DNA from: a virus | Taxonomy: Duplodnaviria; Caudoviricetes | IMG/VR virus record: IMGVR_UViG_3300011560_000001 | Location: 64,001-128,000 of that record | Reading direction: 5' to 3' (one strand) | Length of the DNA stretch: 64,000 bases | In this document: positions 47,465 through 49,047 of the stretch, piece after piece | How the letters are laid out: each line of letters begins with the position of its first letter | Position numbering within the stretch: position 1 is the first letter of the stretch | Notes under the pieces: model-generated | What the model was told of the DNA's origin: nothing | Database searches by the model: none | What the model saw: the letters and a program-made list of their open reading frames with translations, nothing else | Position numbers and translations under genes: made by a program

Positions 47465-47490
47465 TAAGGCTTCATTGTAAACAGAATTAA

Positions 47491-47508
47491 GGCTATATTA
47501 CGAAAGTG
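47491..47508 (+). promoter_or_regulatory. phiKZ-type early promoter inside the intron, upstream of the HNH ORF
   Basis: GGCTATATTAC-GAAAG-TG, the same extended motif as four intergenic copies. Confidence 0.7.
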
Positions 47509-47542
47509 TAGTTAGTTTCACTGCACAAGAGGAATATAGTCA

Positions 47543-48754
47543 ATGAGTGAGAAGGTATTTAAGACCGTAACGGAATTCCCATTCCTGGAGATATCCATAG
47601 ATGGAACATTGCGTAACAAGGAATCGAAGTTTGAATACTTGCCCATCATCATTGCTGGATATTATCGTTATTCGTTTCGAGGTCATGATGGAACACTGGT
47701 TTACCGTTCCATGCATAGACTTCTAATGTTAACGTTCCGGAACATCGATGATGCGCATTTGCTCCATGTGAACCACAAGGACGGCAACAGACTTAATAAC
47801 TACCTTGATCCCGACGGTAACACCGAGAATGACAATCTTGAATGGGTTACGCAGAAAGAGAACAACCAGCATGCTCGCATTATGAACATGCGTAAACGTT
47901 CAATTGCTGCCTACGGTAAACCTATTCAGGTTCGTGATGTTGATACCGGTGTTGTAACCAGATATCCATCCATGACGGAAGCGGCACGCGATCTTGGTGT
48001 GAATATCGACTTCATTCATCATCGTGTCTATAGAGGCAAACAGCGAGCGTTTCCTGAACGTAAGCAGTACCGCAAAGATTACGGCGATGAACCGTGGCGT
48101 ATTCCTACCAAATACGAGTTAGCAACGTTGACGGATACGGGAAGTAAGGGTGTGATTGCAAGGTCAACGATAACAAAAGAGATTCATCTTTTCGAATCAT
48201 TGACTGAATTCGCGAATCACATTGGTGTTAAGTTATCCACTGCGTCGATGTACGTTAACGACAAGAACCAACCTGTCGTTAATGGTTGTTATCAAGTTAA
48301 GTGGGTTACTGATGAGACGCCATGGCGAGAAGTCGAAGATAGTATCCTGGAGTTGGAGAAGACAACCAACAAACGTGCTATTGTCGTCATTCCTGAAAAT
48401 GATGTACCTCTGTTGTACCTTTCGGCCGTCGATTGCGCTGAAGAAATGGGTATATCTACCACGTTACTCAATTACCGTTTGAAGTCCGATGGGATGACTA
48501 AATTTCCTGATGGAAAACGCTATATTTACTATTCTGTTTACAAAGAGCGGGTCCGTTTATACGGTGACGTATGGACGAGATTCATTGAATTGCGGGGACG
48601 CCCAATGCTGCCTTCAGCCAAAGCGGAAACGGAAACGTTAGACGTGCGAGAAGCGAGACGTATTGCTCGTAAAGCAGGCTTTAAAAATGAAGAGTTGACC
48701 GCGACAAAAGTTCGTGGTCCGCAGGCCAAGGGTAATCCGCAGCCAATCGCCTAA
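47543..48754 (+). CDS. Intron-encoded HNH homing endonuclease (NUMOD4-HNH-IENR1/NUMOD1 repeats, I-HmuI-like)
   Basis: EISIDGTLRN, MHRLLMLTF, VNHKDGNRLNN and NLEWVTQKENNQHA; three HTH-like repeats YPSMTEAARDLGV, FESLTEFANHIGV, YLSAVDCAEEMGI; SD GAGG. Confidence 0.92.
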   Translation: MSEKVFKTVTEFPFLEISIDGTLRNKESKFEYLPIIIAGYYRYSFRGHDGTLVYRSMHRLLMLTFRNIDDAHLLHVNHKDGNRLNNYLDPDGNTENDNLEWVTQKENNQHARIMNMRKRSIAAYGKPIQVRDVDTGVVTRYPSMTEAARDLGVNIDFIHHRVYRGKQRAFPERKQYRKDYGDEPWRIPTKYELATLTDTGSKGVIARSTITKEIHLFESLTEFANHIGVKLSTASMYVNDKNQPVVNGCYQVKWVTDETPWREVEDSILELEKTTNKRAIVVIPENDVPLLYLSAVDCAEEMGISTTLLNYRLKSDGMTKFPDGKRYIYYSVYKERVRLYGDVWTRFIELRGRPMLPSAKAETETLDVREARRIARKAGFKNEELTATKVRGPQAKGNPQPIA

Positions 48755-49047
48755 GGATCGTTGTGAAACGTTCTAGGGTGACGGTTCAACGACTAAGGGA
48801 TTCATCCCCCTGTACCCCTCGAGTGAGGCATTCTCCTTGGATAAGAGAATGGCGCTGGATGCGCTGGGAAGAAGTGAACTCTCGTTGAGGTGCTGAAGAA
48901 GCACCGTTTGAAACGAGATGTGATATAGTCTGCTCTTGCGTGAGAACGTAAGCGGGAGGTGATGCGCCTATCATCACCTCCGGGATAAGGCTAACGACCT
49001 TATCTGAACAATCCAGACGCACAGTAATTGTATTTTGCTGGATTTCG

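Follow-up and report, generated by a model that had tools for sequence, protein, structure and literature searches.

A predicted td-like group I intron with an HNH endonuclease gene interrupts virion RNA polymerase β in a Goslar-like jumbo phage

Does a stop codon in the middle of a conserved RNA polymerase (RNAP) motif mark the end of a gene or the beginning of an intron? We addressed this question for a locus in a 64,000-nt stretch of viral DNA (the window), which comprises bases 64001-128000 of a 237.5-kb phage genome in IMG/VR (IMGVR_UViG_3300011560_000001). Among 50,697 deposited phage records, the nucleus-forming chimallivirus Escherichia phage Goslar was the sole close relative of the window, and the phage carrying it is a Goslar-like chimallivirus (jumbo phage) of Escherichia coli. 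Positions 44258-50187 of the window hold three open reading frames (ORFs) of 1069, 403 and 366 amino acids (aa) on the plus strand, to which all window coordinates below refer. Our analysis indicates that the window very probably contains a functional, splicing group I intron at 47465-49047 (1583 nt), whose predicted removal would fuse the two outer reading frames into a single β subunit of the virion RNAP (vRNAP).

An insertion within a conserved motif of the RNAP gene

The first ORF (44258-47467) terminates in ...ADRDD-TAA, and its stop codon (47465-47467) coincides with the first three bases of the proposed intron. Exon 1 (44258-47464) accordingly comprises 1069 codons ending in ...ADRDD, while exon 2 (49048-50187) comprises 379 codons and a stop and starts with PKRLVFIGIQHNR. 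The third ORF had been called from an ATG at 49087, yielding 366 aa, with its frame open upstream beyond 49048. Joining 44258-47464 to 49048-50187 gives an in-frame product of 1448 aa that contains no stop codon. Goslar gp207, annotated as ‘RNA polymerase beta subunit’, is an uninterrupted protein of the same length, lacks the insertion and is otherwise collinear: the joined product aligns to it with 0 gaps and 1429 of 1448 identical residues (98.7%), the junction DRDD|PKR standing opposite DRDD|GKR. Matches to the PHROG 3148 profile are exactly contiguous as well, with exon 1 covering positions 2-1050 and exon 2 positions 1051-1420.

Group I introns require a 5′ exon that ends in U and an intron that ends in G. 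Here, exon 1 ends with U47464 and the intron with G49047. Among in-frame combinations of a 5′ exon ending in U and an intron ending in G, this was the only one to preserve collinearity with the homologues. Shifting the boundaries by ±1 or ±3 nt, or placing the 3′ site after G49040 or G49041, lost the terminal G, added two residues or destroyed the DD motif. Since every shifted alternative fails in one of these ways, the boundary coordinates are exact, and joining the exons restores the conserved ...DRDD-PKR... motif. A preliminary description of the locus had read the apparent stop after ADRDD as the start of an intron, had placed its ends at U47464 and G49047 with a DD|PKR junction, and had predicted one 1448-aa product that ORF-based annotation would split into two subunits; all of this is borne out by the gap-free alignment to gp207 and the contiguous profile matches.

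The same description had assigned the gene to the virion enzyme, and we arrived at the same assignment. Exon 1 aligns with PhiPA3 gp211 end to end, from residue 3 to the terminal DD (31% identity, E 2e-161), and is a homologue of phiKZ gp178 and Goslar gp207. PhiPA3 gp211/209 carry a gp178-like annotation, homologues in OBP, KTN4, Yaphecito and ZPAH34 are annotated as virion-associated, and phiKZ gp178 is a vRNAP subunit (PMC8287921; PMC10612078). The interrupted gene is thus that of the β subunit of a virion-packaged RNAP, its packaging in the window phage being predicted from these homologues. The preliminary description had labelled the gene β-N; its DD motif is equivalent to a position midway along RpoB, with only 379 aa remaining after it. 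Pfam searches returned no family in exon 1 or exon 2, and a sequence search of the PDB with exon 1 returned no match.

That β might be made instead as two polypeptides of 1069 and ~366 aa, which would assemble non-covalently while an inactive ribozyme persists as a dead relic between their genes, would suit a group of phages whose RNAP β and β′ subunits are naturally split into several polypeptides (PMC8287921), and the in-frame ATG at 49087 would provide a start for the second part. Such a division would, however, fall within the conserved DD-x-KR motif and would discard the first 13 codons of exon 2, which lie upstream of this ATG and are conserved in homologues. We consider it improbable, also in view of the RNA features described below.

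Anatomy of the predicted ribozyme

A group I intron at this site was recognized by the Rfam covariance model RF00028 (gathering cut-off 50 bits). The match extends over 48529-48952 and the full model (1-253) with 51.4 bits and an E-value of 3.9e-10, in agreement with the intron claim of the preliminary description. Its P (AAUUGCGGG), Q (AAUCCGCAGC), R (GUUCAACGACUA) and S (GAUAUAGUCU) elements, which the preliminary description had also listed, are all aligned in this match. We also built a comparative RNA model from five introns, namely the window intron, those of PhiPA3, Serratia phage 2050HW and Vibrio phage C-ZP2022, and an ORF-less intron from a third Goslar-like genome, L090 (see below). 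RNAalifold recovered P2, P4, P5 and P6 from this set, with 37 base pairs, 15 of which are compensatory in that both sides have changed.

On the window sequence, P3 (48581-86/48873-78), P4 (48591-96/48736-41), P6, P7 (48791-95/48926-30), P8 (48880-48918) and P9 (48934-48951) can be drawn. P5 and P6 lie inside the core (48529-48952), as do the proposed P7.1/P7.2-type hairpins: ~95 nt between R and the 3′ strand of P3 form three or four hairpins of this type. The core is followed by a 3′ peripheral domain (48953-49047), which is predicted to fold into a P9.1 hairpin, a hairpin with a UAACGA loop and one extra hairpin before the terminal G. Its td-like character, also part of the preliminary description, is evident at 48978-49014, where identity with the td intron of T4 and its relatives reaches 91-94% over 32 nt; five related introns share a conserved UAACGA...CUGAA...UCG motif. 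Judged by the extra P7.x hairpins and the td-like 3′ domain, the intron can be classed as IA2-type, the td-like subgroup.

The splice-site helices were read from the sequence. In the putative P1, the exon strand GAU (47462-47464) pairs with the internal guide GUC (48551-48553), U47464 and G48551 forming the splice-site wobble. All five introns have this guide within an unchanged GGUC immediately 5′ of P2. The P2 hairpin (48555-48576) comprises 9 bp capped by a GUGA (GNRA) loop, with compensatory changes in L090, PhiPA3 and 2050HW. A putative P10 of 2 bp would pair G48549 and G48550 with the exon 2 bases C49048 and C49049. P1 is extended by a helix of 13 contiguous pairs between 47475-47487 and 48531-48543, a length equalled in 3 of 500 shuffles; the corresponding position is also helical in PhiPA3 and 2050HW, but with different sequences. 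This extension closes a loop that holds the 403-aa ORF, and the predicted fold therefore places the ORF in the P1 loop.

Several alternative pairings were considered and rejected. In the 78 nt before the ORF, G47511 (UAGUUA) and G47539 (UAGUCA) could each serve in a guide of 4+2 bp. Both were dropped because they lack a conserved counterpart in PhiPA3, 2050HW and C-ZP2022, whereas GUC at 48551-48553 is invariant in position and sequence. The hairpin that the Rfam match aligns at 48533-48556 pairs poorly and is not P2, and in place of a mini-hairpin proposed by RNAfold (CCGU/ACGG) we adopted the P2 of 9 bp with its GNRA cap, which L090 supports. RNAalifold additionally proposed a helix between GGUC and GACU of the R element; we regard it as artefactual, since guide and S element resemble each other.

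Taken together, these elements suggest that the pre-mRNA would self-splice with guanosine, using the GAU/GUC P1 with its U47464-G48551 wobble and G49047 as the terminal guanosine, to yield one 1448-aa subunit. A number of observations weigh against this. The margin of the Rfam score (51.4 bits against 50) is small, and only 3 bp of P1 involve the exon, with 2 bp in P10; in C-ZP2022, by comparison, the exon pairing reaches 6 bp (exon GACGAU with GUCGUC). The endonuclease ORF runs through the core to P6, and its translation could disturb folding. For the PhiPA3 element, Birkholz et al. use the term ‘putative’ self-splicing intron (PMC11620839). Furthermore, the phiKZ transcriptome gave no evidence of splicing at the predicted intron endonuclease loci gp56, gp72 and gp179 (PMC10914365), so that in this phage family a predicted intron does not amount to proof of splicing; that of the window intron is a prediction.

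The marginal score, the weak P1 and the unspliced phiKZ loci would likewise fit an inactive ribozyme flanked by two β polypeptides. Set against this, core elements, GUC guide, helices and terminal G have all been retained, with compensatory changes, and the ORF-less copy in L090, at least 95% identical across the 3′ core, also passes the Rfam cut-off. A splicing intron remains our clearly preferred explanation.

The endonuclease gene and its expression

The intron-encoded ORF (47543-48754; 403 aa) is preceded by a probable ribosome-binding site (AGAGGA, 47526-47531) 11 nt before its ATG at 47543. It is predicted to encode an HNH homing endonuclease, in which NUMOD/helix-turn-helix DNA-binding modules follow C-terminal to the HNH domain. 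Pfam NUMOD1 was detected with 34.4 bits (cut-off 22.8), while the HNH_3 match was weak (E 0.005) and matches to the I-TevI DNA-binding and I-HmuI NUMOD-like families stayed below their cut-offs. The ORF matched the HNH endonuclease family PHROG 59 with an E-value of 3e-37, and its best match among all phage records was PhiPA3 gp210 (36% identity, E 3e-56); an IMG/VR search with the ORF returned distant HNH relatives only.

The HNH motif is intact, with VNHKDGN...DNLEWVTQKENNQHA aligned to VNHKNGI...DNLEWVTAQRNIEHA of gp210 and H78 opposite the catalytic H82. An H82R mutant of gp210 is inactive (PMC11620839). By analogy to gp210, the endonuclease would be expected to nick. Nicking activity and a competitive advantage have been demonstrated for gp210 (PMC11620839). 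The final ~60 codons of the ORF (48572-48754) have no counterpart in gp210. They span the 3′ side of P1, P2, P3, P4 and an enlarged P5 and reach into P6, representing a translation of ribozyme segments P3-P6. The ORFs of PhiPA3 and 2050HW end earlier, at P2 or the P1 extension.

A candidate signal for separate expression of the endonuclease lies upstream of it. The motif TATATTAC at 47494-47501, 42 nt before the ATG, is one of 6 copies in the window (5515, 18057, 31177, 32010, 47494 and 55466), where 2.0 would be expected. Another 8 copies beyond the window bring the genome-wide count to 14, all of them on the plus strand, and 11 of the 14 fall outside ORFs of at least 100 aa, that is, in 7.5% of the genome. 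The copies share the context ...ttcacggcTATATTACct..., with flanks of the form ttcacggc-TATATTAC-cta.gtga. This distribution suggests that TATATTAC probably represents a class of phage promoter, and the copy in the intron is a probable phage promoter element. The motif may resemble the early promoters of phiKZ; a literature search for TATATTAC returned nothing relevant. The intron copy lies downstream of both 5′ strands of P1. Because a transcript starting there would lack these strands, it could not splice, and would thus serve as a dedicated endonuclease mRNA.

An own ribosome-binding site and a promoter-like motif are also what one would expect of a free-standing HNH gene, an intron-less homing element comparable to SegF or MobE, of a kind that is common in jumbo phages. 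Had such a gene inserted between two separate genes, the ribozyme-like sequence around it would be incidental. We regard this as highly unlikely: both flanks form one uninterrupted gene in Goslar, the insertion respects the reading frame with single-nucleotide precision, a full group I core scores above the Rfam cut-off, and the L090 allele is an RNA element that lacks an endonuclease altogether.

For an intron-encoded enzyme, the following homing pathway can be proposed. When a relative without the intron infects the same cell, the endonuclease, possibly made from its own transcript begun at TATATTAC within the intron, would nick or cut the allele of that relative close to the DD codons, which is how PhiPA3 gp210 acts. 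With the intron-bearing genome as repair template, the intron would then be copied along with exon flanks of ~200 nt on the upstream and 25 nt on the downstream side.

Relatives, alleles and possible traces of mobility

The nearest known counterpart is the PhiPA3 intron. The preliminary description had held that this HNH-bearing intron resides in a non-virion RNAP gene, and that the window intron is distinctive for its location in the virion enzyme. Neither statement can be upheld. Birkholz et al. (Science 2024, PMC11620839) place gp210 in a putative group I intron within the vRNAP β gene gp211/209, the homologue of phiKZ gp178, directly after two conserved Asp residues, the second of which corresponds to E. 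coli RpoB D675. Since exon 1 aligns with gp211 up to the terminal DD, where that study puts the PhiPA3 intron, the alignment shows that both introns interrupt one gene at an identical codon boundary.

The two elements share further features beyond the host gene and an insertion after Asp codons equivalent to RpoB D674/D675: a short 5′ segment is followed by an HNH/NUMOD ORF and then by the ribozyme core, the endonucleases are homologous, and the guide GUC, the P/Q/R/S elements and the 3′ end UAACGA...CUGAAGAU-UCG recur. They differ in host, the window phage infecting E. coli and belonging to another genus, and in size, the PhiPA3 intron measuring 1352 nt with an ORF of 330 aa, compared to 1583 nt and 403 aa in the window, where the ORF reaches ~200 nt deeper into the core. 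The window intron also has a larger P5, extra P7.x hairpins and one additional 3′ hairpin. A blastn search with the whole intron against the 50,697 phage records gave no match at E ≤1e-5; similarity to the PhiPA3 DNA is absent at the blastn level.

Two other phage systems show partial similarity. The T4 td intron (IA2) with I-TevI likewise has UAA right after the 5′ splice site, a P7.1/P7.2-type core and a homing endonuclease gene, in addition to the near-identical 32 nt of the 3′ domain. It interrupts a different gene (thymidylate synthase) at a different site. The td ORF encodes I-TevI, a GIY-YIG enzyme, in the P6 loop, in contrast to the HNH ORF in the predicted P1 loop of the window intron. 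The DNA polymerase introns of SPO1 and SP82 also encode enzymes of HNH + NUMOD architecture (the nicking endonucleases I-HmuI and I-HmuII), but lie in another host gene and are related to the window element at the domain level only.

Further relatives were found among other chimalliviruses. Serratia phage 2050HW has the same boundaries (GATGAT|TAA...TCG|CCAAA) and a homologous endonuclease (Rfam 82.6 bits), and Vibrio phage C-ZP2022 the same DD| junction, again with a homologous endonuclease (Rfam 40.2 bits). Klebsiella phage phiKp_32 also carries a homologous endonuclease in this gene, with the intron located ~9 nt further downstream, after DDPKR. These other cases are annotated only as a split ‘RNA polymerase beta subunit’ and an ‘endonuclease’. 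Among 288 phage records containing this gene segment, 269 gave a match in a single place over 80% or more of the query; in a minority, inserts of either ~330-430 nt or more than 1.3 kb interrupt the segment.

As a side observation, the phiKp_32 element (L008 4290-5690), a group I intron with an HNH ORF, marks a second insertion point in the same motif, and phiKp_32 and C-ZP2022 (L007 1008-1402) each have one further intron in the upstream gene. In HPP-Temi (PP968062), Yaphecito (MW021758) and Aeromonas phage PS2 (MN453779), tblastn found the junction segment in two pieces that span 1077-1180 nt compared to ~740 nt; these match spans suggest ORF-less introns of ~330-430 nt near the site.

Within the Goslar group, three alleles of this site exist, a finding that is new here: no intron in Goslar, an ORF-less intron in L090 and the ORF-bearing intron of the window. 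The L090 intron (IMGVR_UViG_3300045988_173921, L090:3040-3500) measures 461 nt, occupies the same site and scores 54 bits with the Rfam model. From P6 on, that is, over its 3′ two-thirds, it is ~95% identical to the window intron, and it diverges in P1-P5; judged by sequence, it looks mosaic.

The flanking exons carry a corresponding signature. Compared to Goslar, the window gene has 203 mismatches in 4347 nt, of which 47 fall into the 200 nt upstream and 11 into the 100 nt downstream of the insertion site, while the rate elsewhere is 3-4 per 100 nt; the densest 60-nt mismatch window of the gene ends at the junction. Over the ~230 nt around the site, mismatches are about ten times denser than elsewhere. 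In a three-way comparison of the proximal 100 nt, the two intron-bearing alleles were 5 mismatches apart and differed from Goslar by 30 and 27, against a star-like background. This pattern, likewise reported here for the first time, would be expected if homing had co-converted the flanks along with the intron, the donor being a more distant one. The direction of conversion is not polarised without an outgroup, which counts against this interpretation: the intron may have been gained with foreign flanks, or a Goslar segment may have been replaced by a foreign intron-less one.

We propose only tentatively, and with less than even confidence, that the intron is currently mobile among Goslar-like phages, that the TATATTAC-started mRNA uncouples endonuclease from vRNAP expression and that the three alleles represent stages of a homing cycle. 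If true, such a cycle would be ongoing in a phage whose replication takes place within a protein nucleus. To our knowledge, PhiPA3 against phiKZ is the only pair of nucleus-forming phages in which an intron endonuclease has been studied as a weapon, with alleles that are ~60% identical. In the Goslar group, all three allele types (intron-less, ORF-less and ORF-bearing) occur in ~95% identical genomes, with a laboratory E. coli host; homing, co-conversion and interference could therefore be quantified under conditions of efficient recombination.

For annotation, two ‘RNA polymerase beta subunit’ ORFs and an ‘endonuclease’ become one predicted spliced gene of 1448 aa and an intron ORF. The same merging is due in several deposited chimallivirus genomes, including 2050HW, C-ZP2022 and phiKp_32. 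What is known about this kind of element is left unchanged, and the value of the locus is a modest one, consisting of this correction and of a natural three-allele series in a chimallivirus that serves as an E. coli model.

The genome is intron-rich. Outside the window, it gave two additional RF00028 matches below the cut-off, of 47 bits (G000:C1:1028-1548, minus strand) and 31.5 bits (G000:C1:151877-152238, plus strand). A reciprocal polymorphism was observed in the vRNAP β′ gene. In the window, this gene (ORF 42566-44254, 562 aa) is uninterrupted; in Goslar, it contains a 2045-nt group I intron (NC_048170 211753-213799; Rfam 67.7 bits) with the HNH ORF gp206 inside, which splits the catalytic motif GGD|FDGD at a site corresponding to 44073-44075 of the window. 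The Goslar annotation of β′ comprises exon 1 (gp205) only, exon 2 having been missed.

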